Source: a virus (taxonomy: Duplodnaviria; Heunggongvirae; Uroviricota; Caudoviricetes). Taken from it: DNA of 64,000 nt. This document shows positions 283-26,997 of this stretch, in pieces (positions within the stretch are counted from its first letter, which is position 1; each line of letters starts with the position of its first letter). The DNA lies in the IMG/VR virus record IMGVR_UViG_3300037418_003103; one strand, 5' to 3'. The notes beneath the pieces were generated by a model. It searched no databases. It was given only the letters and a program-made list of their open reading frames with translations, and was not told the origin of the DNA. The translations under genes were made by a program, and so were the position numbers.

Positions 283-852
283 TTAATTATTTATATTATA
301 ATGCTTTTCAGTCCCATCAGCCTTAGAATAAACAATTTCATCTGATTTAATATCAAGTTTAATATCCTCTTCATTCATAAGCTTAATATATTTATCTGCT
401 TTGCCTTTCTTAACATATGCAACTGTCATGTGTGGATGATAGCTATGTTCATTGGTATGTGGTAATTCAGACAGTTTTTTATTAGCTGATTTCAATCCAT
501 CACCATGCATATCAAATTTAAGAACGTCGCACTCAGGAGACTCAAATTTAGAAATATTACCAATTGATACGCCGAATGAAGAAAAAGTATCAATTACTAC
601 TTCAACTTCTTTGTCAGGCACATCAGAATGAATGCCATAAAGTAATGTAATATGAGGCGTCTTTTCAAGAGCATATTTGTTCTCTTCTTTCCCATTCTCA
701 CCCATGTACAAATCATCTCTATCTATAAGATCTAACACAGATTTCCATTCCTTTCTTGGGATTTCAACGTATAGCATCACACAGCCATATTCATAGGATA
801 CTCCCTTTTCTTCTAATAATATTCTAAGTTTTCTTCTTAATTCTATATTCAT
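283..852 (-). CDS. 2H phosphoesterase, T4 57B/Acb1-like
   Basis: Two HxT motifs (PHITL, PHMTV) and GCVMLY; start moved to ATG 852 just downstream of ATATTTAT motif at 857-864. Confidence 0.75.
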   Translation of the reverse strand: MNIELRRKLRILLEEKGVSYEYGCVMLYVEIPRKEWKSVLDLIDRDDLYMGENGKEENKYALEKTPHITLLYGIHSDVPDKEVEVVIDTFSSFGVSIGNISKFESPECDVLKFDMHGDGLKSANKKLSELPHTNEHSYHPHMTVAYVKKGKADKYIKLMNEEDIKLDIKSDEIVYSKADGTEKHYNINN

Positions 853-865
853 ATCAATAAATATA

Positions 866-1738
866 TTAAATAATCCATTTAGCAAGCATAGAGTCTTGCT
901 GGAATATCAAGTCATTATCGGTCACATCTTGATTCAAAATAATATTCTTTAAATGCATAAAGTAACGGTTTCCTGGGACATTAATCATCTTTCTTTTTAT
1001 TACTTCGCCTGTATCAAATGACATAATATTTTTTACTCTAATTGTTTCATTAAATGATTTTATATTATTTATTGAAAATAATTTAATAGTATACTGAAAG
1101 GGTATTGCCAACGAGTTGAAATCGTTGTAATAACTCGATGGAATTTTATTGAACTCTAATATAATCTCATCAGCTTTTTTACCAACAATATGCGGGACTA
1201 AGTAAACTGGCATAGACTCCAATATTATTTGCATCATTTCTTTTTGGATAATACTTAGTCTTTTAGGATTGGTATTGCCAAACACCAATTGTCTATATGA
1301 CTTGGATTCAGCTAAAAAATCATCCAAATTAATCTCACTCTTAACAAAAACATTCCACTCAGGTAGGATTCCTGTTAGGCAAAATGCGTGTTTGAACGCC
1401 TGCCAATTAGCAGCCTTTAAATCAAGAGATACATAATAATTATTCTCTTTAAAATTATTAAAATTTAATTCTGAATAAGTATTTTTATATCTATTCATAT
1501 CAATACTATTCAAATCCATTCCAAGTATTTTAAATTTTTCAATGATAGCATCCATTGATTTCATTTTATATTTTCCTATGTCTTCAACTTCATCCTCTAA
1601 CGCCTTAAGTCTATTTACTGGTTCCATGGTACATATGCCTGCATTTATAAGAGTATTTATGTAATAAACGGCGCTCTCAAGATACGGAATTTTAAATTCT
1701 GGATAGGATTTAGTTAACTCTTTATAATTCATAACCAA
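866..1738 (-). CDS. hypothetical protein, weak polymerase palm-like motifs
   Basis: 290-aa ORF; YVSLDLKAANW and KADEIILEF. Confidence 0.6.
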   Translation of the reverse strand: MVMNYKELTKSYPEFKIPYLESAVYYINTLINAGICTMEPVNRLKALEDEVEDIGKYKMKSMDAIIEKFKILGMDLNSIDMNRYKNTYSELNFNNFKENNYYVSLDLKAANWQAFKHAFCLTGILPEWNVFVKSEINLDDFLAESKSYRQLVFGNTNPKRLSIIQKEMMQIILESMPVYLVPHIVGKKADEIILEFNKIPSSYYNDFNSLAIPFQYTIKLFSINNIKSFNETIRVKNIMSFDTGEVIKRKMINVPGNRYFMHLKNIILNQDVTDNDLIFQQDSMLAKWII

Positions 1739-2615: not shown

Positions 2616-3038
2616 ATGAAAAAAGTATTTTTAGGTGGTACAACCAATAATTCAAATTGGAGAGACGAATTAATAGATAAACTTAGAATTGAGTTCTTCA
2701 ATCCAGTTGTTAAGGACTGGAATGAAAAAGCACAAAGAGAAGAAATTAAACAAAGAGAAGAATGTGATTTTGTTCTTTATGTAATTACTCCTAAGATGGA
2801 AGGAGTATACAGCATTGCAGAAACCATAGAAGACGCTATTAAACGGCCTAAAAAAACAATATTTGCTTATTTATTAGAAGATGATAAAAAGGAATTTTCC
2901 AAGCATCAGGTTAAATCACTTGATATGGTCGGCTCTATGGTTAAGGAAAACGGTGCAAAATGGTTTAAATCATTAGACGAGATCGCTGATTACCTTAATT
3001 TCCAGGGCTTAAATACTTATAAAACTTCCAAGGATTAA
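2616..3038 (+). CDS. nucleoside 2-deoxyribosyltransferase-like protein
   Basis: KVFLGGT..NWR, FFNP, GVYSIAE. Confidence 0.7.
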   Translation: MKKVFLGGTTNNSNWRDELIDKLRIEFFNPVVKDWNEKAQREEIKQREECDFVLYVITPKMEGVYSIAETIEDAIKRPKKTIFAYLLEDDKKEFSKHQVKSLDMVGSMVKENGAKWFKSLDEIADYLNFQGLNTYKTSKD

Positions 3039-4781: not shown

Positions 4782-5846
4782 CTATGCCAAATTTAAACTT
4801 TCTTTTTCTTCTCTTAAAAAATACTCAAGAGCAACGGCTGAAATTTTCTTATTTAACTCCTTTAATTCAAAGCCAGAATCCTTTATGGTTTCGAGTTCTT
4901 CTTTAATAATATCGTTTATTACCAGTTTAATATATTCACCAATATGACGTCTATGAATAGCTCCTCCATTTAGAAGATGACAGGCTTTTGTAAGCATTTG
5001 GTCAAGTCTCCATGTGGGGGTTATTTTGTCAACTACTTCACTAATTTTATTATTTCTATCAATGTCAATAGGAGAGGCAACAGGCTTATCTTTTGGCTTG
5101 CCTGCATGTTTATCTCCCTTAGCTTTAAAACGGTAAATTTGGCCGTTTAAATGGCCAATACCAACAATTCCTTCGCCTATACCAGAAAATCCAAATGCCT
5201 TTCCTACTGGACATTCAGTTTCAACTTCTTTAACTATCTGATCAATAAGCTGTTGGGAACTTGCTGGGTCATTAAAGTCTATGTCCAGAGTATAGGTTTT
5301 ATAATCATTTATATTATATATCCTGTTACCAGGTGCCCTTAGGTTTGAGGAATCAACCCAATAAGCAACAGAATCAACCCCGTCCTTTGGATGTGGAGTG
5401 ATCTTTACTCCTATTATAAACATAGATTTATCTAAGTTGTTAATTGCCACGCCCTTTTGGATTCCTTTTCCCACCCACTCAGCGTATATTGTTATTGTAT
5501 TAGTTGATAAGTCCAAAGAATTCCTGCTTTTAATTTGATTAAATAACACTTCTAAAGCCGATTTATTTCTTTCGCAAAAAAGAGCCGATCCAGCGTTGTC
5601 ATTACCAATACTGATTATGCTTTCTTTTGATTGAACCCACATGCCTACCAGGTCGTTCATACAGACGCCTAAATTAGTTCCATGTAATTTTACAGTAAAA
5701 TCGAACCTGATAGTAGGTTTAGGGAGTGATTCATCATATGTTGGATCTCCATTTTCATCTAAACCTGTAAATTCTGAATATCTTTTTACAGCATATACGG
5801 TATTAATATACTGTCCGATATCTGGGAAGCTAATTTGTTTTTTCAT
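4782..5846 (-). CDS. ATP-dependent RNA ligase, Rnl2-like
   Basis: Motif I KLHGTN, YAEW, GEGIV, RFKAK. Confidence 0.8.
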   Translation of the reverse strand: MKKQISFPDIGQYINTVYAVKRYSEFTGLDENGDPTYDESLPKPTIRFDFTVKLHGTNLGVCMNDLVGMWVQSKESIISIGNDNAGSALFCERNKSALEVLFNQIKSRNSLDLSTNTITIYAEWVGKGIQKGVAINNLDKSMFIIGVKITPHPKDGVDSVAYWVDSSNLRAPGNRIYNINDYKTYTLDIDFNDPASSQQLIDQIVKEVETECPVGKAFGFSGIGEGIVGIGHLNGQIYRFKAKGDKHAGKPKDKPVASPIDIDRNNKISEVVDKITPTWRLDQMLTKACHLLNGGAIHRRHIGEYIKLVINDIIKEELETIKDSGFELKELNKKISAVALEYFLREEKESLNLA

Positions 5847-5899
5847 ATTTTAATTTTAAAATATGAAAAAACAAATATAAGTAAAGTCTAAAGCTTGCT

Positions 5900-6523
5900 T
5901 TATTTTACGTTTCGAAAAGAAGTCTTCAGATCAAAACCAGCTGAAAGTATTTTCTCTTTATTGGTTTGATTATTAGGAATATCCTTTGTTCTGGACAGCC
6001 AATTTGATAACTGAATCCATAAGTCTTCTGCTGGCAAGACCCTTTGAAAGCCGTAATCAGCGAGTATCGGAAATTTAGAAAACTCCTGATGGTGTTCGAA
6101 ATAATGGTAGTCGCGGTGTTTGTAAGTTAGGCCTAACTCGCCACCTAAAACGTTGATCAATATAGGATAATTCAACTTATCGTTAACCACTGAGTTAACT
6201 CTTTTTTTTAAGACCTGTGTTAAGGATTGATTCGAAAGTTTAAGGTCAACAGTATAATAATCCTTCTCGTCACCGCCTCTGATCCAGTATCTTCTTTTTT
6301 TGCTCTTAAGAGCAATTTTTTCAATATCAGACTCCCAATAATACTGACCATTCAGACATACTCCTTCATATTCATATCCGCAAATATAAATATTAACCAG
6401 ACCATTTGGCGGGAATTTAGGTGTCCTATAGAACTCAGTCCTATCAAGGATTAACTTTTCATCAATTCCATATATTCCCTGCAGATAATCGTAATAATCC
6501 TTAAATTTGCTAATTATTTTCAT
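5900..6523 (-). CDS. hypothetical protein
   Basis: 207-aa ORF; MKIISKFKDYYD ... GFDLKTSFR. Confidence 0.75.
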   Translation of the reverse strand: MKIISKFKDYYDYLQGIYGIDEKLILDRTEFYRTPKFPPNGLVNIYICGYEYEGVCLNGQYYWESDIEKIALKSKKRRYWIRGGDEKDYYTVDLKLSNQSLTQVLKKRVNSVVNDKLNYPILINVLGGELGLTYKHRDYHYFEHHQEFSKFPILADYGFQRVLPAEDLWIQLSNWLSRTKDIPNNQTNKEKILSAGFDLKTSFRNVK

Positions 6524-7071
6524 GTTAACTGGGTAGTTTTCTCTACACGATTTGAATCAAGTATCTCTGATGCTTTTATCATTAATTCATCAAGATACTG
6601 CCACATTTCCGTTTCTGGACCAATGTGCCTGAGTGCTGTTGTAAAATCTATATGTTCTTTAACATACATTCTAAGCTTATCAATATTTTTCATCCTGGTC
6701 GCATGAGATATATTTGCAATTCTATCAGCAAGCTTGATAACCAATGCTTTAGGATATAAATTTATTTTCTGATATACCCTTTCTTTCTTCTCTTTTCTTG
6801 TTCTAGCATCGCTTGGGTCAGTAACAGCTAGAACCATTTCAGCTACGTTAAGGCCAAATAAATTTTTTATTTTACTGTAAGTTAATGCGGCATCCTCGAT
6901 GCTATCATGCAGTGCACCCGCAGAAATATAGTCACCAGCATACCCAAATTGTTGAATAACGTCCACAACATCCTGCAGATGTTTCTCGTATGGAAATATA
7001 TCGTACATTTGGTTCTTGTGTGCTGAAAAAGCAACCATTTTAGCCTCTTCGTTTGCCTTTGAATAAAACAT
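6520..7071 (-). CDS. HD-domain (p)ppGpp hydrolase-like protein (small alarmone hydrolase/Mesh1-like)
   Basis: AH..Q, PY..H, LHDSIED, KLADRIAN. Confidence 0.75.
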   Translation of the reverse strand: MFYSKANEEAKMVAFSAHKNQMYDIFPYEKHLQDVVDVIQQFGYAGDYISAGALHDSIEDAALTYSKIKNLFGLNVAEMVLAVTDPSDARTRKEKKERVYQKINLYPKALVIKLADRIANISHATRMKNIDKLRMYVKEHIDFTTALRHIGPETEMWQYLDELMIKASEILDSNRVEKTTQLT

Positions 7072-11470: not shown

Positions 11471-11553
11471 AATTTAAGACAAATTTACTATAAATCTCTA
11501 GATAGTCAAGTTGATTAAAATATTATTTCTTATCTCAAAAACAATATCGAAAG

Positions 11554-11590
11554 TGGTGTGAGGTGGTCTCGAACCACCGACGACTGGATT
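11554..11590 (-). pseudogene. 3' half of an interrupted tRNA (Phe-like)
   Basis: AA TCCAG TCGTC GGTGG TTCGAGA CCACC TCACACC A: intact T arm and acceptor 3' strand. Confidence 0.75.
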
Positions 11591-12195
11591 TATTTCCTTG
11601 CCTGTTTAGAACAAAAAGTGTCAGTTTGACTATGACAATTAGGGCATAGTATTCTTAAATTACTTACTCTATTATCTGCCCTATCACCATTTATATGGTC
11701 TAATTGTAATACTAACGGTTTACCGTTCCAATTCGGTTCCTGTTGGCATTCATAACACTTATTTTCTAAAAATCCTTCCTCTAGGGCTCTTTTCTTAACT
11801 GTTTTAGTATTATTAGTTTTTGACGGAAAACTAAAAATATCATCTAATGTTAACCTCTTTTGGAAACCATTCTTGGTGCTACTAATACCAAAATCAAATT
11901 TAAGTTCACTCAAATTGATCTCGTATAAGCTAGCATATTTTTCAAGAGTCTGAAAATTACCTGATCTTATTTTAAGACCTAATTTCCTAAGTACCTCACT
12001 CTTTGAGTGACTGTTTTTAACAGCAATAACCAATAGTTGCTTCGTCCAATTAACAGTTTTTTTATACCCAATAGTTTTCAGCTCAAACTTCTTCAAGTAA
12101 TAGCGAACTGTTGAGGGCGATACGCCGAATTCTTTAGCTATTTCTCTTATTGATAGCTTTAGAGATACTAACTTAATTAATTTTTCTTTGTCCAC
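11590..12195 (-). CDS. HNH homing endonuclease with N-terminal HTH, inserted in a tRNA anticodon loop
   Basis: C..C, LQLDHINGD..DN..SNLRILCPNCH. Confidence 0.9.
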   Translation of the reverse strand: MDKEKLIKLVSLKLSIREIAKEFGVSPSTVRYYLKKFELKTIGYKKTVNWTKQLLVIAVKNSHSKSEVLRKLGLKIRSGNFQTLEKYASLYEINLSELKFDFGISSTKNGFQKRLTLDDIFSFPSKTNNTKTVKKRALEEGFLENKCYECQQEPNWNGKPLVLQLDHINGDRADNRVSNLRILCPNCHSQTDTFCSKQARK

Positions 12196-12255
12196 CTATA
12201 TAAATAGGCGGACACGCCATAATTATAACAAATTCCTATAAAGTATTAGAAAATA

Positions 12256-12288
12256 AATCCTTTACTATACCAACTGAGTTATCTATTC
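12256..12288 (-). pseudogene. degenerate 5' half of the interrupted tRNA
   Basis: GAATAGA TA ACTC AGTTGGTA TAGT A AAGGA TT; D-loop intact, acceptor strand no longer complementary. Confidence 0.55.
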
Positions 12289-12507
12289 TTTTTGGTTATC
12301 ATCTTCTTTATACTTAGTGTTTAAATAATGTAGATAGCCAATTTCTTCAGAAGTTAATTCACCAATAAAAAAACTATCTTTAAATTTTTCAGTATTAAAT
12401 ACGTGATATCTCACATTTTTATTCGAAAAGTATTCAACTTCAACAAGTTTGCCTAATTCAATTAATTCGTCTATAAAATATTCATACTGTTCTAAAGCTG
12501 TCATCAT
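12283..12507 (-). CDS. hypothetical protein
   Basis: Start moved to ATG 12507 because the longer ORF overlaps tRNA-Cys. Confidence 0.6.
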   Translation of the reverse strand: MMTALEQYEYFIDELIELGKLVEVEYFSNKNVRYHVFNTEKFKDSFFIGELTSEEIGYLHYLNTKYKEDDNQKE

Positions 12508-12525
12508 AATTTTAATTTTTATTTG

Positions 12526-12596
12526 AATTACATGAGAGATTCGAACTCCCGTGGTGTGGGTTGCAACCACACGCCTAACCACTCGGCCAATGTAAT
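12526..12596 (-). tRNA. tRNA-Cys(GCA)
   Basis: Full cloverleaf ATTACAT/ATGTAAT, U73. Confidence 0.9.
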
Positions 12597-12597
12597 A

Positions 12598-12807
12598 TTA
12601 AGCTTCTTTTATCATTCCAAGGATTTCTCTTGGAGATACAAGAGTACACTTCTCTTGTATCTCCTTTATTCTTCTCTTGGGAATATCGTAGTGATTCTTG
12701 TGAAACCAGCATTTTTTAATCCCAAGCAACTCACCCATTAAATGCAGGTTCTCTATTGAATACGGTATGCATATCAGATGTCTCTGTTTATCACAGAAGT
12801 ACTTCAT
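12598..12807 (-). CDS. DUF4031-like small protein
   Basis: WFH..HYDI; ATGA overlap with upstream stop. Confidence 0.55.
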   Translation of the reverse strand: MKYFCDKQRHLICIPYSIENLHLMGELLGIKKCWFHKNHYDIPKRRIKEIQEKCTLVSPREILGMIKEA

Positions 12808-13013
12808 TTCCATTGCTTCTTTCTGTTGTACTTCCATGTTCTATACTCCCCGTATTTCCATTTTAGAATCTCTTTATTTTTTCTTCTACCTCTTGAACGA
12901 TGGTATATAATACCTTCATCCCAGTAGGGTTCAGACATCCTATCATTGGTTACAATCTTGTATTCTTTCCTACAAGTTGTCTTTTGGCTCACTGAGCCTT
13001 TAAATGGTTTCAT
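12804..13013 (-). CDS. small basic protein, WKxNRKxQWK family (copy 1)
   Basis: C-terminal TWKYNRKKQWK. Confidence 0.7.
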   Translation of the reverse strand: MKPFKGSVSQKTTCRKEYKIVTNDRMSEPYWDEGIIYHRSRGRRKNKEILKWKYGEYRTWKYNRKKQWK

Positions 13014-13030
13014 CAATTAGATTTTTATAT

Positions 13031-13054
13031 CTAATGTTCTGTTACTCTTTTCAT
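13031..13054 (-). promoter_or_regulatory. uORF MKRVTEH* (TAG) with stop in hairpin 13016-13035
   Basis: ATG AAA AGA GTA ACA GAA CAT TAG; 7-bp stem, 6-nt loop; 17 nt to next ATG. Confidence 0.65.
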
Positions 13055-13100
13055 ATTATTTTTTTTTAACCAACAGTATTTAGTTGGCCAATTTTTAATT

Positions 13101-13451
13101 TTATACTATTCCAAATATTAGTAATTTTGCGGGCATTGCAGCAAAATAATCTGCATCATCCATTTTTGATACTGGCACTTCAAATCTTACTATTTCTGCA
13201 TTTATTTCTCCACAATTGATTAAAGTTTGATAATAGGCTACCCCTTTTCTTATCATTGTCAAAGTAGCTTGTGGGTTTTGCTTATAAAGAATTTTCTTTA
13301 TTTCATTTTTTTTGTCAATCTCTTTTTGAATCTTCCAATCATCGAAACCTGGAGGTGGTGGTACAAATCCGCGCATGTTATTTTTAATTTGTTTTTTACT
13401 TTTTTCAGACTGTTCCTCTGTTAAATTAGGAACTAATTCATTTGCTTCCAT
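13101..13451 (-). CDS. hypothetical protein
   Basis: 116-aa ORF. Confidence 0.65.
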   Translation of the reverse strand: MEANELVPNLTEEQSEKSKKQIKNNMRGFVPPPPGFDDWKIQKEIDKKNEIKKILYKQNPQATLTMIRKGVAYYQTLINCGEINAEIVRFEVPVSKMDDADYFAAMPAKLLIFGIV

Positions 13452-13621
13452 TGTGTTTTTCTATTTAATTTCCAATTGATTTTGTGCCTATTATATCTGC
13501 GATATCTATTACAGCCTCTATGAGGTCTACATCTATCACAACCTAATCTATTTCTCAACCAAATTATTCTAAAGGTTCTTGAATCTGTTACTTTTTCTAT
13601 TTCTTTTGTTTTGTATGACAT
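13433..13621 (-). CDS. small basic protein, WKxNRKxQWK family (copy 2, with CxxCxxHxxC)
   Basis: CDRCRPHRGCN; NWKLNRKTQWK. Confidence 0.7.
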   Translation of the reverse strand: MSYKTKEIEKVTDSRTFRIIWLRNRLGCDRCRPHRGCNRYRRYNRHKINWKLNRKTQWKQMN

Positions 13622-13638
13622 TCTGAATTGTTTTTAAT

Positions 13639-13665
13639 TCAGAAGAAGTCGTATTGTTTTTTCAT
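13639..13665 (-). promoter_or_regulatory. uORF MKKQYDFF* (TGA) with stop in hairpin 13621-13644
   Basis: Perfect 9-bp stem TTCTGAATT/AATTCAGAA, 6-nt loop; 17 nt to next ATG. Confidence 0.65.
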
Positions 13666-13684
13666 TTAATTTATATTTTACTTG

Positions 13685-13755
13685 TAGCACCACTAAGATT
13701 CGAACTTAGTCGTCGAAAATCAAAATTTCGCATGCTGCCGTTACATCATGGTGCA
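13685..13755 (-). tRNA. tRNA-Gln(TTG)
   Basis: Cloverleaf with U1-U72 mismatch; loop TT TTG AT. Confidence 0.9.
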
Positions 13756-14239
13756 ATTTTACTCCAAATTCTATTTTCCAGGTCCTTATAAAAGGGTTCA
13801 GGGATCTTTATTCCTCTTGACTCAAAATCCTCTACAATTTCCTGCTTCCTAAAAGTACCTTCAACTACACCATCACTCCAAAGGTTGACATGCAACCCCC
13901 AACTCTTCTTAGCTGTTATTACAGCCCTGGTTATGTTCGGATGGCGGGTAATAACCTCAAATATATCATTACTCTTAAATTCTCCATTATCAAATCTCTT
14001 AAAGGCTTCCTTTCCTGAGAATGAACCAGTTCCTTGTTTGAATCTGTAGTCCAGATTCAGATCACATCCACAAAAGATAAGTAACCCACTTCTATATGAC
14101 TTCAGAAAGAATGAGAACATTTCATTAAAGTTTTCTGAATACTTTCTTATCTTTCTATCTTTTCTTGAACCAATCAGTTTTTTTCTTTCTTCTCTATCCT
14201 GATTGGTTACATTGCGTCCAGCCGTTTCATAATGCTCAT
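13746..14239 (-). CDS. hypothetical protein, probably frameshifted near its start
   Basis: Frame of 13746..14120 stays open to ~14244; nearest ATG (14239) is 1 nt out of frame. Confidence 0.5.
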
Positions 14240-14253
14240 AATTTTAATTTGTC

Positions 14254-14514
14254 TTAGGGTATTATTCCAAGTGATTTTAATTCTTTTTCAATACCTCTTC
14301 CCTCCTTATTGGAGGCGGTACAAAAGCACTGTACCGCCTCAGCTACTGCGACCTCTACATCATCGTCATAAGCCGCAATTGTATTCAGTTTGAACAATGG
14401 TATGTCAACGTCCAAGTAACCCATTCTTTGAGTTGTAATTACTGGCGTTAGGACACTATAGCTCCTTCCAGGAAGATCCATTGTTATATTCATTACTTTA
14501 TTATCATTCTCCAT
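14254..14514 (-). CDS. hypothetical protein, HicB N-terminal-like
   Basis: IP...T.A.D..VE.AV.EAV pattern. Confidence 0.45.
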   Translation of the reverse strand: MENDNKVMNITMDLPGRSYSVLTPVITTQRMGYLDVDIPLFKLNTIAAYDDDVEVAVAEAVQCFCTASNKEGRGIEKELKSLGIIP

Positions 14515-14532
14515 ATTAATAATGTTTCATAA

Positions 14533-14774
14533 TAAATATTAGCAAACGGTGGCAGAGGATAGGCGTGCACTAACGCCTCGTTTTACGTCAAACTTTGCCT
14601 TGCTCAGGCTTGTGGATTCGAACCACAGTCTCCACCGCATATATAGGTGGCATCCTAACCGCTAGACCAAACCTGAATTTAAGATCTGACTAAAGCTTAG
14701 ACGCACACGTGGCTATGGTGGCTCTCCTTCGGCTGATTCAGCAAATTTTTGCTGACACCGTTTATTAATATTTA
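14533..14774 (-). ncRNA. putative ~240-nt structured RNA enclosing a tRNA-like domain
   Basis: 23-nt terminal arms 14752-14774 and 14533-14555 pair at 21/23 positions; internal helices. Confidence 0.6.
14603..14676 (-). tRNA. Glu/Asp-type tRNA body with 9-nt anticodon loop TATATATGC
   Basis: All four stems intact; anticodon not assignable. Confidence 0.7.
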
Positions 14775-14781
14775 AAGAACT

Positions 14782-14858
14782 TGGCGGTTTGGACGGGACT
14801 CGAACCCGTGACCTCCGCCGTGACAGGGCGGCATTCTAACCAACTGAACTACCAAACC
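14782..14858 (-). tRNA. tRNA-Asp(GTC)
   Basis: Canonical cloverleaf, G73, encoded CCA. Confidence 0.95.
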
Positions 14859-14903
14859 TTTTAATCGTTTTTAAAACACGCAGAACGATTCAAAACTGAC
14901 CTG

Positions 14904-14976
14904 AGTTCCCTGCTGGACTTGAACCAGCGACCAATCCCTATTACAGGACTGCTCTAACCAACTGAGCTAAGGGAGC
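14904..14976 (-). tRNA. atypical/pseudo tRNA with abnormal anticodon arm
   Basis: D and T arms canonical; GTCCT GTAATA GGGAT gives a 6-nt (or 8-nt) loop; C2-A71 mismatch. Confidence 0.6.
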
Positions 14977-14982
14977 GTTTTG

Positions 14983-15055
14983 TAGCACGAACGGGAATCG
15001 AACCCGTGACTTCTCCGTGAAAGGGAGACGTCTTAAACCCCTTGACCATCGCGCC
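14983..15055 (-). tRNA. tRNA-Glu(TTC)
   Basis: Canonical cloverleaf. Confidence 0.95.
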
Positions 15056-15067
15056 ATTAATATTTAG

Positions 15068-15141
15068 TAGTCCATGAAGGACTCGAACCCTCAACCTCCT
15101 GATCCGTTATCAGGTGCTCTATCCAGTTGAGCTAATGAACC
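15068..15141 (-). tRNA. tRNA-Arg(ACG) with A33
   Basis: CCTGA TA ACG GA TCAGG; A20 in D loop. Confidence 0.85.
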
Positions 15142-15152
15142 GTTTTTTTTTG

Positions 15153-15224
15153 AGCAGAATATTGGATTCGAACCACACATCCTGATTACAAATCAGGCGC
15201 TCTACCAGCTAAGCTATATTCTGC
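15153..15224 (-). tRNA. tRNA-Thr(TGT), 8/4 fold
   Basis: 8-bp acceptor GCAGAATA/TATTCTGC; T stem G.A + 3 bp; U73. Confidence 0.8.
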
Positions 15225-15231
15225 ATTTGTC

Positions 15232-15249
15232 GGAGACGTGGGGCTCGAA
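15232..15249. repeat. 18-bp direct repeat of 16022-16039 (tRNA-like 3' end)
   Basis: ggagacgtggggctcgaa at both sites, flanking the endonuclease gene. Confidence 0.9.
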
Positions 15250-15284
15250 ACATACTTTTCTTTAATTATTTGGTATTTATTAAT

Positions 15285-15959
15285 ATGAAGCCAAAATACA
15301 CTAATAAAGAATTTGAAGAAGCAACTTCAACCACAGAATTACCTTGCGAATGTTACCAATGTTCAAATACATTTCTTAAAATTAAAAAACATATAACTTT
15401 TGAACTTAAACACAATGTCGGTGAGTGTAAATTTTGCTCACAACAGTGTTTATCTAATTTTAAAAATAAGAAAATTAGTGTTAATTGTTCAAATTGTTCA
15501 AAGACCTTTAAAAAAAACAAACATAGAATGAAATTATCATTAAATCATTTCTGTTCACGCTCATGCTCCGCAACCTATAATAACATTCATAAAACTTACG
15601 GCACTAGAAGGTCAAAATTGGAATGTTGGTTAGAGCAACAACTCACCGCATTATACCCTACCATCCATTTTGATTTCAACAAGAAAACTATTATCAAGTC
15701 TGAGCTAGATATTTACATACCATCATTATCATTAGCATTTGAATTAAACGGTATCTTTCATTACGAACCCATATTCGGCATTAAAAAACTTAACCAAACA
15801 CAGAACAACGATATTTCCAAAAGTAAAGCTTGCTTTGACGCAAAAGTTGACCTTTGTATTATAGATGTTTCATCTCAAAATTATTTCAAAGAACCTTCCA
15901 GTATCAAATTTTTAGATATCATCCGAAAAATTATTGATGACCGCTTGTTAACATCTTAG
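15285..15959 (+). CDS. Zn-finger + PD-(D/E)XK (Vsr/DUF559-like) putative homing endonuclease
   Basis: CxxC and FCS..C repeats; RSKLE, ELDIYIP, AFELNGIFHY. Confidence 0.8.
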   Translation: MKPKYTNKEFEEATSTTELPCECYQCSNTFLKIKKHITFELKHNVGECKFCSQQCLSNFKNKKISVNCSNCSKTFKKNKHRMKLSLNHFCSRSCSATYNNIHKTYGTRRSKLECWLEQQLTALYPTIHFDFNKKTIIKSELDIYIPSLSLAFELNGIFHYEPIFGIKKLNQTQNNDISKSKACFDAKVDLCIIDVSSQNYFKEPSSIKFLDIIRKIIDDRLLTS

Positions 15960-16019
15960 CCGCTATAAAAATAACGTTACCAGCAAACACCTCTTGGCGG
16001 TGGGTTAACTTAGTTTGCC
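15947..16019 (-). ncRNA. HDV-like (theta) self-cleaving ribozyme
   Basis: P1 GGCAAAC/GTTTGCT (G.U at site), P2 GTTAAC/GTTAAC, P3 ACC/GGT, L3 GCCAAGA, P1.1 CC/GG, P4 CGTTAT/ATAGCG, J4/2 GCTAA. Confidence 0.75.
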
Positions 16020-16094
16020 TAGGAGACGTGGGGCTCGAACCCACCTGACCTGATACCCTTCCGACACGGTATAAGCGTGAGGGGATAGACTCCA
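16020..16094 (-). tRNA. D-armless tRNA-like RNA with Ile(TAT) anticodon loop
   Basis: CACG CT TAT AC CGTG; T arm GTGGG TTCGAGC CCCAC; acceptor GGAGTC/GTCTCC; A73. Confidence 0.6.
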
Positions 16095-16105
16095 ATTTTT
16101 AATAG

Positions 16106-16178
16106 AGCGAAGTGTCAGATTCGAACTGCATCCCCTGGTTGGAAGCCAAGTACTTTAAGCCATTAAGCTACACCTCGC
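16106..16178 (-). tRNA. tRNA-Gly(TCC), 8/4 fold
   Basis: 8-bp acceptor GCGAGGTG/CACTTCGC; T stem G.A + 3 bp; U73. Confidence 0.8.
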
Positions 16179-16184
16179 AATTTG

Positions 16185-16258
16185 TGGTCCCTGCTGGATT
16201 CGAACCAGCGGCCCTTGGTTTGTAATACCAATGCTCTAACCAACTGAGCTAAAGGACT
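16185..16258 (-). tRNA. tRNA-Val(TAC)
   Basis: Cloverleaf; A1-C72 mismatch; A32. Confidence 0.9.
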
Positions 16259-16259
16259 A

Positions 16260-16298
16260 TGGAGCCGAGAGGCAGCATCCCTGCCTGTTCAACTCGGC
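16260..16298 (-). ncRNA. CCA-ended tRNA minihelix-like RNA
   Basis: GCCGAG TTGAAC AGGCAG GGATG CTGCCT CTCGGC T CCA. Confidence 0.5.
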
Positions 16299-16315
16299 AT
16301 ATACTCTTTATAATT

Positions 16316-16519
16316 TTATTCAAAATAATCTGTCGCAATAACCAACTCATCTAATTTCTTTTTACTAACCTTCTTTGCTATTATCTTAAGATCATACTCT
16401 TCCCACCTAATTTGTGCTTTACGAATTGCTTCCTCTTCTGATTCGGCAAGAGTATAACAATACATTGGTGTTTTTGCTCCTTTCATTATAGGTATAAATA
16501 CAAAATATAATTCATTCAT
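16316..16519 (-). CDS. hypothetical protein
   Basis: 67-aa ORF, AESEEEA motif. Confidence 0.65.
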   Translation of the reverse strand: MNELYFVFIPIMKGAKTPMYCYTLAESEEEAIRKAQIRWEEYDLKIIAKKVSKKKLDELVIATDYFE

Positions 16520-16534
16520 TTGTTAATTTTTTTG

Positions 16535-16608
16535 TGGAGTAGGCGAGCATCAAACTCGCTACCTCCTGCATGCAAAGCAGGTGCTCTATCCAACTGAGCT
16601 TCTACCCC
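16535..16608 (-). tRNA. tRNA-Ala(TGC)
   Basis: G3.U70, A73. Confidence 0.92.
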
Positions 16609-16626
16609 ATTTAATTCTTTTCTTTG

Positions 16627-16699
16627 TAGCCTTGAATGGATTCGAACCATTATCCTCGGCTTAGAAGGTCGATGCTCTGGTCCATTGAGCTACAAAGCT
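16627..16699 (-). tRNA. tRNA-Arg(TCT)
   Basis: Cloverleaf, one A.C mismatch in anticodon stem. Confidence 0.9.
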
Positions 16700-16737
16700 A
16701 TTGTTGCACGAAAATAGTGTATTTAGCTAAATATACT

Positions 16738-17010
16738 TTATTTAAAGTATATTTTATAATTTTTAATTGGGTTGTCGGTTAATTTGTTAGTACTTTCCAA
16801 ATACCATCCAATATCATACGTTTCGCTATCTATATTACTAATTTCTATTTTCATACCATCCTTTTTCAATTTTTCAATAGTTTCTGCTGAAACAAAACAC
16901 TCAAATAATGTTACATAGTTTAACTTATTTTCTGGGTTATAGGTGGTATTATGTATTAATGTTATAATATCTTCATACGTTTTTTCATGAAACTTTCCCA
17001 ATTCTGTCAT
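16738..17010 (-). CDS. hypothetical protein
   Basis: 90-aa ORF between tRNAs. Confidence 0.65.
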   Translation of the reverse strand: MTELGKFHEKTYEDIITLIHNTTYNPENKLNYVTLFECFVSAETIEKLKKDGMKIEISNIDSETYDIGWYLESTNKLTDNPIKNYKIYFK

Positions 17011-17027
17011 AATTTTTAATTTTTTAG

Positions 17028-17100
17028 CGCGCAGTCAAGGAATCGAACCTTGTCCATGCTAGGTTTTGGAGACCTGCCGCATACCATTATGCTACCACGC
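17028..17100 (-). tRNA. tRNA-Trp(CCA)
   Basis: CT CCA AA loop, G73; bulged anticodon stem. Confidence 0.85.
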
Positions 17101-17103
17101 ATT

Positions 17104-17292
17104 TTATTTTTCGTATTCAAACAACTTAACAAAAATCAGAACCCTCCCTCTTTCTCTTTCAAATCTAAGCTCCGCTTTATCATCAACATCTTTCGCCTTC
17201 TTTAAGTACTTATCGTATATCTGATCAAAGTCCTTATTAAAATCCTTTTCTTTCTCACTCCCTAACTTCCTGTAACGCTCTGTGTTTTCCAT
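17104..17292 (-). CDS. hypothetical protein
   Basis: 62-aa ORF, first gene after the attenuator. Confidence 0.6.
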   Translation of the reverse strand: MENTERYRKLGSEKEKDFNKDFDQIYDKYLKKAKDVDDKAELRFERERGRVLIFVKLFEYEK

Positions 17293-17296
17293 ATTA

Positions 17297-17325
17297 ATAA
17301 AAAACCCCCGATTTTGTCGGGGGCT
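17297..17325 (-). terminator. intrinsic terminator/attenuator ahead of the tRNA array
   Basis: AGCCCCCGA CAAAA TCGGGGGTT TTTT. Confidence 0.85.
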
Positions 17326-17346
17326 ATCTAAGTTACTTTTATATTT

Positions 17347-17445
17347 TTAAAAATATTCAGTATCATACATAACACACCCCAATTCAATGTCTTCGCATTG
17401 TGCCCAATTAAATCGTATCCCTGTTTCTATGACTACTTGTCTCAT
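17347..17445 (-). CDS. putative leader peptide MRQVVIETGIRFNWAQCEDIELGCVMYDTEYF
   Basis: 32-codon ORF between promoter and terminator; codons match array anticodons. Confidence 0.75.
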   Translation of the reverse strand: MRQVVIETGIRFNWAQCEDIELGCVMYDTEYF

Positions 17446-17475
17446 TATTATTATGTTTTAACTTTCTTTGTCATT

Positions 17476-17519
17476 ATAAATATAATGCAAATATACTAAA
17501 AGTAATTATTACAACCAAC
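17476..17519 (-). promoter_or_regulatory. promoter(s) of the tRNA array
   Basis: GTTG(17516-17519)-N20-TATATTTG(17488-17495), plus ATATTTAT at 17476-17483. Confidence 0.7.
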
Positions 17520-17533
17520 TTTTTTATTTTTTT

Positions 17534-18172
17534 TTAAACATCAAGCTGTGAAGTGATGCTTATACTAAAAAGATAGGTATTATTTGTTTCATTAAATCCA
17601 TCTAAATAAGCGTTGATATGGGAAACATATCCGCCTGGATTACCTTCAACTCCATGACTATTGTAATTTAATTCTTTCGCAAACTCTTTAGGATTACCAG
17701 AAATACTACTAGGTATCTGAAGTTTAAATTCCATTGTTGATCCTTCCTCTGACTCAGAAACCTTAAGAGTATTCTTTAAGATATATTTACCATAAGGCTC
17801 TATGGAATGATAAGCATCATCCAAATATTGAGCTGATCGTTTTTCTGAAATGTAAGGAGGTAACTCTGCATCGTCCCATCCAAGCTCAAATGAAGCAACC
17901 TTTATTGCTTCTTGTCTTAACCTCTCAGCACCTTCTTTATCTCCTAGATTAAATTGGGCCTTTCCTTTATCGTACAACTCAATAGCTTTCCTTTCGGCTT
18001 CTTTATTTGAACCATGATCACCATCGGTTGGATCTGTTTCGCTATAAAGACTAGTTTCTAATATATCATCAGGTCTCTTAATTTTATTAAAATTATCTTT
18101 AAAAGATTCTATGATAGCCTTCTGTTTTTGCCTCAATATTAGTTTCTTTTCCTTATTTGTAAGTATTTTCAT
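17534..18172 (-). CDS. hypothetical late protein
   Basis: 212-aa ORF behind ATATTTAT. Confidence 0.7.
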   Translation of the reverse strand: MKILTNKEKKLILRQKQKAIIESFKDNFNKIKRPDDILETSLYSETDPTDGDHGSNKEAERKAIELYDKGKAQFNLGDKEGAERLRQEAIKVASFELGWDDAELPPYISEKRSAQYLDDAYHSIEPYGKYILKNTLKVSESEEGSTMEFKLQIPSSISGNPKEFAKELNYNSHGVEGNPGGYVSHINAYLDGFNETNNTYLFSISITSQLDV

Positions 18173-26968: not shown

Positions 26969-26997
26969 AAAAAGCCCAACAAAATGTTGGACTTTTT
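26969..26997 (-). terminator. intrinsic terminator
   Basis: AAAAGTCCAACA TTT TGTTGGGCTTTTT. Confidence 0.75.

Follow-up and report, generated by a model that had tools for sequence, protein, structure and literature searches.

A phage tRNA array apparently gated by a ribosome-mediated leader-peptide attenuator

The purpose of phage tRNA genes has been debated for fifty years, with codon supply on one side and escape from tRNA-targeting defenses on the other, and to our knowledge little is known about how these genes are regulated. In the attenuators of amino acid operons (trpL, hisL, leuL, pheL and the multivalent thr and ilvGMEDA leaders), a short translated leader carries regulatory codons, and the position of the ribosome on it decides between a terminator and an antiterminator. 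The T-box riboswitch makes the same choice by binding uncharged tRNA directly, and has no leader open reading frame (ORF). Here we analyzed a 64,000-nucleotide (nt) stretch of Caudoviricetes DNA, IMG/VR record IMGVR_UViG_3300037418_003103 (hereafter, the window), in which an array of 11 tRNA genes on the minus strand lies behind a small ORF and an intrinsic terminator. A preliminary description made from the letters of this DNA had read positions 11554-17519 as one inducible island for rescuing translation. Our analysis indicates that 17501-12525 is probably one composite tRNA operon gated by a ribosome-mediated (leader-peptide) attenuator. We found no description of leader-peptide attenuation of tRNA genes in the literature, including a comparative-genomics overview of jumbo phages.

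Parts of this locus resemble systems that have been described elsewhere. The trn operon of Anabaena sp. PCC 7120 (the L-array; Santamaria-Gomez et al. 2021) is normally silent and comes on under impaired translation, in co-regulation with the RNA ligase gene rtcB, and its neighborhood includes a conserved HNH endonuclease gene (PMC8421152). Theta ribozymes are minimal ribozymes of the hepatitis delta virus (HDV)-like kind that lie 3' of phage tRNAs, and among the phages that carry them an enrichment of RNA ligase genes is reported (Kienbeck et al. 2024, PMC10879173). Jumbo-phage toolkits bring tRNA genes together with ATP-dependent RNA ligases of the Rnl type, 2H phosphoesterases and an HD-alarmone phosphodiesterase, a pairing that has been interpreted as counter-defense (Iyer et al. 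2021, PMC7824862).

The leader region opens with a promoter-like 17-mer (17485-17501, minus strand) that contains a TATATT / TAnnTTTG box and is the sole exact copy in the window. The identical 17-mer stands before the leader units of the related loci L016, L066 and L067 and is also present in L040 and L073, and in relatives a TTGACA lies 17-18 nt upstream of it. It is followed by a leader ORF of 32 codons plus a stop (17347-17445, minus strand), of which codons 2-19 appear to be the sensor. These 18 codons include a cognate codon for 11 of 11 array tRNAs, nine by exact Watson-Crick pairing and two, Gly GGG and Arg CGA (for Arg-ACG), by wobble; all ten isotypes are covered, including the most distal, Gln and Cys, and ATA appears twice. 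When leaders were simulated from the phage's own codon usage, such coverage had a P of about 1e-5 for the 18 codons and of 7e-5 to 1.5e-3 for the whole ORF. It was equaled in 0 of 16,093 real 18-codon windows, and the leader came first among the 259 small ORFs of the window. The 5' region of the leader also holds a 7-codon mini-ORF (17451-17474, minus strand), which ends in the stop run TAA TAA TAA TGA overlapping the leader start and which is not found in relatives.

The intrinsic terminator (17297-17325, minus strand) begins 21 nt past the leader stop and consists of a 9-bp GC stem with a 5-nt loop (17325-17303) and a T-run; with a folding energy (dG) of -14.7, it is the strongest in the window. 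Leader codons 22-29 (17382-17364) are predicted to pair with 17332-17317, forming an antiterminator hairpin (17317-17382, minus strand) that takes up the 5' arm of the terminator. As the leader stop codon (17349-17347) lies in the apical part of this predicted hairpin, a ribosome finishing the leader must melt it.

From this anatomy we infer the following mechanism. The conserved promoter would drive a translated 32-codon leader whose codons 2-19 are those read by the tRNAs encoded downstream. With fast decoding, the ribosome would reach the leader end and melt the antiterminator, the terminator would form, and transcription would stop. Were any of the sampled codons slow, the ribosome would lag, the antiterminator would persist, and RNA polymerase would read through into a 62-amino-acid (aa) ORF, the 11 tRNA genes, three aberrant tRNA-like genes and the small genes embedded among them. 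An HDV-like ribozyme inside the unit would cleave the precursor where a D-armless Ile(UAU)-like RNA has its 3' end, and the phage tRNAs would then speed the decoding of the leader, closing a negative feedback loop.

Folds of the nascent RNA, in which only the RNA 3' of the ribosome and up to the terminator loop was considered, behave as this mechanism would predict. In the window, the terminator 5' arm is sequestered with P of 0.78-0.96 when the ribosome is at codons 6-14 and of 0.02 when it is near or at the stop. Equilibrium folding gave a different picture, since the full-length leader always adopted the terminator wherever the ribosome was masked; the model thus rests on co-transcriptional kinetics, as for trp, and for this reason nascent-RNA folds were used instead. 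The codon coverage of the window leader, taken alone, is in addition a post-hoc observation. For these two reasons, relatives were sought.

Related loci were harvested in two ways: an alignment of 26 homologues of the RNA ligase encoded downstream of the array led to 80 IMG/VR loci, and a promoter-anchored scan was made independently of the ligase. A leader unit was defined by an ORF with 20-36 codons, a terminator at or below -9 kcal/mol that starts 15-40 nt past the stop of the ORF, and a co-oriented tRNA within 450 nt. By this rule, the window and related IMG/VR contigs contained 30 distinct units with no obvious false positive, in which the leader ORFs are 24-34 codons long, the terminators have a dG of -10.5 to -17.6, and 21-32 nt separate stop and hairpin. 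The same rule-based search found no second leader-terminator unit in the window. This leader family is widespread in uncultured giant phages.

Relatives split their tRNAs over several arrays, each with its own matched leader. Cys-Val-Leu arrays stand behind leaders rich in L/V/C, Phe-Glu-Asp-Ala arrays behind F/D/A/E leaders, Asn-His-Trp-Ser-Ile-Met-Arg arrays behind I/S/N/W/R/H/M leaders, and Pro-Gln-Tyr-Thr-Gly-Lys arrays behind Y/T/Q/P/K/G leaders, a class added by the promoter-anchored scan; the window leader forms a fifth class of its own. L016 has the promoter 17-mer, a 33-codon ORF, a terminator and then a homologue of the 62-aa ORF (49% identity) before its first tRNA; its tRNAs run Asn-His-Trp-Ser-Ile-Met-Arg-Arg-Ser, and between residues 2 and 19 the leader is made up almost wholly of N, H, W, S, I, M and R. 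L066 has two units, with an L/V/C-rich leader before Cys-Val-Leu and an F/D/A/E-rich leader before Phe-Glu. Across leader residues 2-20, the match to the array of the same class was 0.57, 0.63, 0.93 and 0.87 for these four classes and 0.74 for the window, over a background of 0.15-0.44. Matches between leaders and arrays of different classes were mostly at or under background, and the identity assignment ranked first of 120. Array isotypes were found in their own leader in 92 of 95 cases, against a proportion of 0.50 for leaders of other classes. Members of a class keep the composition but differ in codon order and in their choice among synonymous codons, which argues for selection on the sampled codons and not on the peptide sequence.

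Several further features of these phages came to light. In L016, L046, L066, L089, L108 and other related giant phages there are up to four attenuator-gated arrays, which jointly serve almost the full set of 20 amino acids. Many tRNAs of these phages (Cys and Ile, for example) span 83-87 nt according to Rfam and ARAGORN, unusually long for the isotype. The tmRNA model RF00023 has a short match inside the tRNA array of L016 (L016:1428-1510), at 28.7 bits, below the gathering score, with an E value of 9e-8.

The leader and its terminator also vary together. In every class, a segment 1-29 nt upstream of the leader stop (24-32 nt for the simple helix of the window) complements the 5' arm of that leader's own terminator, and is in effect a copy of the terminator 3' arm. 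Compensatory pairs between leader and terminator include ACUGGG/CCCAGU, GAUGGG/CCCAUC, GAGACG/CGUCUC and GGGUCGG/CCGACCC. The duplex of a leader 3' part with its own terminator 5' arm has a mean energy of -12.4 kcal/mol, compared with -9.6 for cross pairs and -8.4 for shuffles, and none of 20,000 permutations did as well. This permutation test of duplex energies took the place of column-wise counting of antiterminator pairs, which was dropped as the terminator arms are offset between alignment rows. In nascent-RNA folds across the family, the terminator 5' arm is sequestered at 0.72-0.75 with the A site at codons 6-14, and at 0.11-0.17 when the ribosome is six codons from the end or at the stop. 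Of the attenuated leader proposed in the preliminary description, the leader ORF and the strongest terminator of the window are confirmed, and attenuation itself is supported by the family and its two covariations.

These results bear directly on a simpler explanation, namely that this is an ordinary constitutive tRNA cluster, that the hairpin at 17325-17303 ends the upstream operon, and that the small ORF is there by chance or is unrelated. Large phages commonly have tRNA clusters with interspersed small ORFs and homing endonucleases (the tRNA regions of T4 and T5, and segB in T4), and the gene strand has just three strong terminators, of which this one follows the gene at 17534-18172 and forms in every equilibrium fold. 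However, it stands 210 nt past the upstream stop codon, with the promoter 17-mer and the leader in between, and the next ORF starts 11 nt beyond the T-run, leaving no room for a further promoter. The codon coverage of the leader would also be an improbable accident. Most telling is that the leaders of relatives shift their composition with the tRNA set and that their 3' parts covary with their terminators. We consider a constitutive cluster very improbable.

How far the read-through transcript extends we infer from the layout of the array. Having the whole array at 17100-12525 under one switch is the simplest reading, because there is one leader, one promoter 17-mer, no second unit and no strong internal terminator, and because the leader includes Gln and Cys codons; the Gln and Cys genes themselves lie 3.4-4.6 kb downstream of the leader, beyond the ribozyme and an endonuclease insert. 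Strong intrinsic terminators on the minus strand number only three in the window, at 26973, 17304 and 3611, and none was found between 17304 and 3611. The earlier statement that none lies between 17297 and 11554 is therefore borne out, and holds even as far as 3611.

Several observations weigh against an attenuator-gated single operon, beginning with the equilibrium folds described above. The antiterminator of the window is modest, with a duplex of -11.1 kcal/mol, and 4 of 18 foreign terminator arms pair with the leader equally well or better. In a fold free of ribosomes the antiterminator is predicted too, so basal read-through may be high. Because the units of a class share descent, independent support comes from the five classes and not from 30 units. 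Internal promoters within the array are possible, consensus scans being uninformative in such AT-rich DNA, and the array precursor is interrupted by a plus-strand endonuclease gene and by the ribozyme cut. The proposal of one minus-strand unit is supported by the single leader that samples all isotypes, and is qualified by the plus-strand gene (15270-15959) within it. On balance, an attenuator-gated single operon is well supported by the sequence comparisons, and "inducible" and "one unit" are the best reading of the sequence.

The array comprises 11 canonical minus-strand tRNA genes between 17100 and 12525, on which ARAGORN and Rfam RF00005 (30.5-71.5 bits) agree, in keeping with the 11 assignable cloverleaves reported before. 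In order from the leader, these are tRNA-Trp (17027-17100), Arg-UCU (16626-16699), Ala (16534-16608), Val (16184-16258), Gly (16105-16178), Thr (15152-15224), Arg-ACG (15067-15141), Glu (14982-15055), Asp (14782-14858), Gln (13684-13755) and Cys (12525-12596). They decode A-ending codons that are common in the phage's own genes. The first gene past the terminator is the 62-aa ORF (17104-17292, minus strand), which starts 11 nt beyond the T-run and has no protein-family match. A 17-nt AT-rich start context (AAAAATTAAAATTATGA) is present in three minus-strand copies: those at 12504-12520 and 17007-17023 have as their last letters the start codon of an ORF located after a tRNA gene, the one at 14236-14252 precedes a mini-ORF downstream of a HicB-like ORF, and together they may represent a common translation-initiation signal.

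Three aberrant tRNA-like genes are interspersed with these, all on the minus strand. The one at 14903-14976 has a 6-nt anticodon loop and is called "tRNA-???" by ARAGORN (Rfam tRNA 46.9 bits, fold z score -2.6), and the one at 14602-14676 has a 9-nt loop and is called by ARAGORN only. A 23-nt inverted repeat (14533-14555 / 14752-14774, 87% complementary) surrounds the 9-nt-loop gene and two hairpins, and may mark the termini of a miniature mobile element or else form a long stem that RNase III processes. The third, at 16020-16094, was read from the sequence as a tRNA-like RNA that lacks a D arm but has a normal T arm and, on a short stem, the loop CUUAUAC (anticodon UAU, reading AUA); neither ARAGORN nor Rfam calls it, and its fold z score is 0.17. 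The two ATA codons of the leader argue for an AUA decoder among the aberrant genes. Just 5' of tRNA-Val there is also a GC-rich hairpin (16260-16298, minus strand; -19.4 kcal/mol, z score -2.4). The presence of non-canonical tRNA-like RNAs, noted in the preliminary description, is confirmed by these genes; tRNA fragments also lie beside an HNH endonuclease gene.

Immediately 3' of the D-armless RNA lies the HDV-like (theta-type) ribozyme (15947-16019, minus strand). Its match to RF02682, at 38.9 bits, falls short of the gathering score (44), with E = 3e-5 when 1.8 kb was searched and 1e-4 when 6.4 kb was searched, although every HDV-like helix can be read, so that the ribozyme reported earlier stands. 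The double pseudoknot is complete, with a 7-bp P1 that has G1.U38 at the cut site, a P2 of GUUAAC/GUUAAC and a 3-bp P3, and with P1.1 as CC/GG, a 6-bp P4 and a J4/2 of GCUAAG with the catalytic C, all read from the letters. Cleavage is predicted between 16020 and 16019, which is 1-2 nt past the acceptor-like 3' strand of an RNA that neither tRNA-finding program recognizes. A second candidate ribozyme after the 9-nt-loop gene (14601-14540) was rejected, having a P1-like stem only, without P4 or J4/2, and no Rfam match. Four matches to the ribozyme core pattern in IMG/VR were judged to be chance, with no tRNA or ribozyme nearby, and no HDV-like match was found in three related arrays.

The ribozyme adjoins a plus-strand homing endonuclease gene (15270-15959; phrog_559 at 3e-11, phrog_9084 and phrog_3339) whose stop codon overlaps the ribozyme 3' end. 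A perfect 18-nt direct repeat of the tRNA-like 3' end (15232-15249 and 16022-16039) brackets the two, which gives them the look of a mobile cassette, one that entered at a tRNA 3' end and supplied a new device for 3' processing. At the far end of the region is an HNH homing endonuclease gene (11590-12195, minus strand; phrog_10822 at 6e-44, Pfam HNH_3/HTH), flanked by a degenerate tRNA 5' part (12196-12282) and by a tRNA 3' fragment (11552-11595) that aligns with tRNA 3' halves. Both endonuclease genes are mobile insertions, and no homologue of the plus-strand endonuclease is conserved in related loci. By the sequence comparisons, the ribozyme and the two homing endonucleases appear to be recent, variable cargo, and the HicB-like ORF appears to be variable cargo likewise.

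That 86-aa ORF (14254-14514, minus strand) had been described as HicB-like, a call that is weakly supported. ESM-Atlas structural neighbors alone place it near HicB_lk_antitox clusters, with template modeling (TM) scores of 0.58-0.64, suggesting a possible HicB-like fold. No Pfam, PHROG, NCBIfam or PDB sequence match was found for it, nor any homologue in the 80 related loci, and no HicA-like neighbor was seen among the ORFs scanned; a single-sequence AlphaFold2 model had a predicted local distance difference test (pLDDT) score of 45 and was not used. A plus-strand ORF resembling nucleoside 2-deoxyribosyltransferases (2616-3038) has a sub-threshold HicB_lk_antitox match of 19.8 bits, a better HicB signal at the sequence level than that of 14254-14514.

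The two stop-codon upstream ORF (uORF) cassettes of the preliminary description were recovered, and occur in relatives as well. They precede the genes of two paralogous small basic proteins (13433-13621 and 12804-13016, minus strand), each behind its own uORF (13639-13665 and 13031-13054, respectively); in both cases the uORF stop lies inside a hairpin of -11 kcal/mol and is 17 nt from the ATG. The proteins are very basic, with a Cys-rich motif (C-x2-C-x-P-x-R-G-C-N in one paralogue) and the C-terminal motif WK-x2-RK-x-QWK. They have no family match and may bind RNA. Homologues of them, likewise with a uORF and hairpin, lie inside the arrays of relatives (L044:289-513, L046:18435-18608 and L058:18935-19156). 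Between the two small basic protein genes lies a 116-aa ORF (13101-13451, minus strand), homologues of which are found between Cys and Val in L008, L012 and L041.

Downstream of the array on the same strand are two genes that the preliminary description had noted 5-7 kb away and that were recovered here. The first is an HD_4 protein resembling small alarmone hydrolases (6520-7071, minus strand), with a Pfam HD_4 score of 43.2 bits (cut-off 27.2), an intact H-D dyad, and PDB relatives among RelA/SpoT hydrolase domains, Mesh1 and SAH. The second is an Rnl2-like ATP-dependent RNA ligase (4782-5846, minus strand) identified by phrog_548 (1e-36) and the Rnl2-type motif I sequence KLHGTN; its matches to the Rnl2 model TIGR02307 (15.9 bits, cut-off 197) and to Pfam RNA_ligase (21, cut-off 27) are weak, and no PDB sequence match was found. 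The ligase has 2205 homologues, which carry PF09414 and many of which are on 260-385 kb contigs; the closest, at 79% identity, are on contigs of 300-385 kb. Homologues in phages, with 32-37% identity, bear the annotation RNA ligase 2, and in vB_VmeM-32, a T4-like Vibrio phage, the homologue adjoins a PseT kinase. A 200-aa ORF at 283-885 (minus strand) matches the 2H phosphoesterase / 2'-5' RNA ligase superfamily (PF13563 30.9 bits, cut-off 27; phrog_755). It is a candidate 2',3'-cyclic phosphodiesterase that could heal ends left by the ribozyme or by anticodon nucleases, and lies 4 kb from the ligase, past the 3611 terminator. The ORFs of the window that were scanned yielded no polynucleotide kinase.

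The association of these genes with tRNAs recurs in relatives. Among 60 distinct ligase genes, 48 had enough upstream sequence, and 15 of these had a homologue of the HD protein within 4 kb upstream; where flanks were complete (20 loci), at least one tRNA lay within 10 kb of the ligase 15 times, and 150 of 151 tRNAs were co-oriented with it. The ligase and HD protein are conserved, co-oriented neighbors of tRNA arrays, and they probably serve RNA repair and the clean-up of alarmones or tRNA ends. The genes that intervene between the array and the HD and ligase genes in the window (M15 peptidase, DPBB, S-adenosylmethionine decarboxylase and DUF6580, of lysis type or metabolic) are conserved in relatives too, so the shared neighborhood may reflect inherited gene order and not a functional link.

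The preliminary description had gone further, reading the island as a coordinated counter-measure against host defenses that shut off translation. In its full form, this reading makes one co-regulated counter-defense island of the array with its ribozyme, uORF cassettes and HicB-like ORF and of the ligase and alarmone hydrolase, to be switched on when translation is blocked by anticodon nucleases, tRNA-modifying toxSAS enzymes or mRNA interferases. Depletion of tRNAs is something to which the attenuator would respond, and the ligase and HD genes are separated from the array by no strong minus-strand terminator and are linked to it by the neighborhood statistics above, with a 2H cyclic-phosphodiesterase-like gene further on. 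Published precedents point in the same direction, namely the jumbo-phage pairing already cited, the ability of phage tRNAs to evade tRNA-targeting defenses (PMC10264068) and the induction of the Anabaena array by translational stress together with rtcB. However, conservation of the parts is uneven: the 62-aa ORF, the 116-aa ORF, the uORF-preceded basic proteins and the HD and ligase genes recur in relatives, but the ribozyme, the HicB-like ORF and the endonucleases are missing from those examined. TAnnTTTG boxes also stand 16-26 nt ahead of the HD and ligase starts, as promoters might, and the intervening lysis-type and metabolic genes, the lack of a polynucleotide kinase among the scanned ORFs of the window, the weak HicB-like call and the missing HicA all speak against a single island. 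The array tRNAs, moreover, read the phage's common A-ending codons, for which plain codon supply is an equally good fit. Of the inducible, coordinated island, the attenuator-gated array is supported by sequence, and a co-regulation of the ligase and hydrolase with it is conjectural. We consider it unlikely that all of these parts form one co-regulated island, or that such an island is switched on by the defenses named, even if a wider counter-defense island is a reasonable hypothesis and a counter-defense role of the array itself is plausible.

An attenuator of this kind would sense slow decoding from any cause, so that a purpose against host defense is one possibility and a demand-driven codon supply would fit as well. 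More speculatively, the leader might be a general sensor of decoding capacity, in which any slowdown, whether from scarce host tRNAs for A-ending codons or from host defenses that cleave or modify tRNAs, opens the whole 5-kb operon as a self-limiting translation-stress regulon. That operon would include the AUA decoder matured by the ribozyme and the small basic proteins with uORF switches of their own, the leader would surpass in multivalency every leader peptide seen so far, sampling about 10 amino acids with 18 codons, and the 2H esterase, ligase and alarmone hydrolase would act on the same pool of damaged tRNAs. We offer this extension tentatively, as a possibility that falls well short of an even chance.

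The window comes from an uncultured giant phage, since its proteins recur on a 345,454-bp contig and since several rhizosphere and soil metagenomes contain the same stretch, identical in every letter that their contigs cover. Four DNA sequencing runs contained the same phage only, identical in sequence at low depth and without variants, plus foreign tRNA matches, and a look among RNA runs found none that contains it. Megablast of the region against 50,697 deposited phage genomes gave no near relative and only short tRNA matches. A search for related loci with two flanking proteins found none, one with a deoxynucleoside monophosphate kinase found a single distant locus, and the protein upstream of the leader had one homologue only, on a short contig. 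The DNA is AT-rich (~32% GC) and densely coding, with the minus strand dominant and the standard genetic code. Stop-codon recoding, considered because of the theta ribozyme context, was ruled out by ORF coverage: under code 11, ORFs of at least 100 aa sum to 19,833 codons, about 93% of the window length when both strands are counted and overlaps retained, and the coding fraction is 0.885 with a non-overlapping gene set. Across the whole window, a sigma-70 consensus scan and a count of TAnnTTTG boxes were near shuffle expectation and so unable to place promoters. Counted 7-27 nt before gene starts, there are 11 TAnnTTTG boxes against 4.3 expected (at 5879, 7094, 9825, 11487 and elsewhere, minus strand), preceding the ligase, HD protein and DUF6580 genes among others; this is weak evidence, and they may be promoters of the Bacteroidota type.

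If the attenuator works as proposed, the phage measures the decoding speed of exactly the codons that its array serves and makes tRNAs on demand, and the debate between codon supply and defense becomes directly testable through the stimuli that open the switch. It would extend trp/his attenuation, a textbook mechanism, to genes whose products are the sensed molecules, and leader codons would become a sequence-only predictor of which aberrant tRNA-like genes are functional. Particular to the window are its single, highly multivalent leader, its composite operon, and a theta-type ribozyme in a non-gut, unrecoded phage.

Of the described systems, the Anabaena array is the closest published inducible tRNA island and is a supernumerary array like that of the window. 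It is, however, controlled by a repressor and located on a cellular plasmid, and "leader", "attenuat" and "terminator" do not occur in PMC8421152, whereas the array here is a phage array behind a leader. With theta ribozymes, the locus shares an HDV-like double pseudoknot and a Caudoviricetes genome, and its predicted cut falls at the 3' end of an RNA that was read as tRNA-like; the ribozyme sequence was not found in the searched supplements of PMC10879173. Theta ribozymes come mostly from gut phages, often recoded, and follow a suppressor, Met or Leu tRNA; the present phage is from soil and rhizosphere, uses the standard code, and has a D-armless Ile(UAU)-like gene in that place. Its ligase is Rnl2-like and not of the DRB0094 family. 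The ligase, HD hydrolase and 2H-like gene fit the jumbo-phage toolkits, in the account of which (PMC7824862) attenuators are not mentioned. Compared with the PseT/Rnl repair of PrrC-cut tRNA in T4, the window has the ligase but no kinase was found in it, and a repair role here would be by analogy.

A T-box resembles the proposed switch in that transcription is gated by the state of tRNA; the window uses a leader ORF instead, and Rfam gave no T-box match in the region. The nearest mechanistic parallel is with amino acid operon attenuators, which likewise have a leader, an intrinsic terminator and an antiterminator on the terminator 5' arm, and in which slow decoding leads to read-through, as it presumably does here. 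The window leader, with about ten amino acids sampled in 18 codons, is far above the known multivalent leaders, and its antiterminator would use the leader's own last codons and stop, so that, unlike in classical attenuators, no separate 1:2 hairpin is needed. Finally, amino acid operon attenuators regulate biosynthetic enzymes, whereas here the regulated genes are those of tRNAs, and the product itself would speed the decoding of the sensor and close the loop directly.

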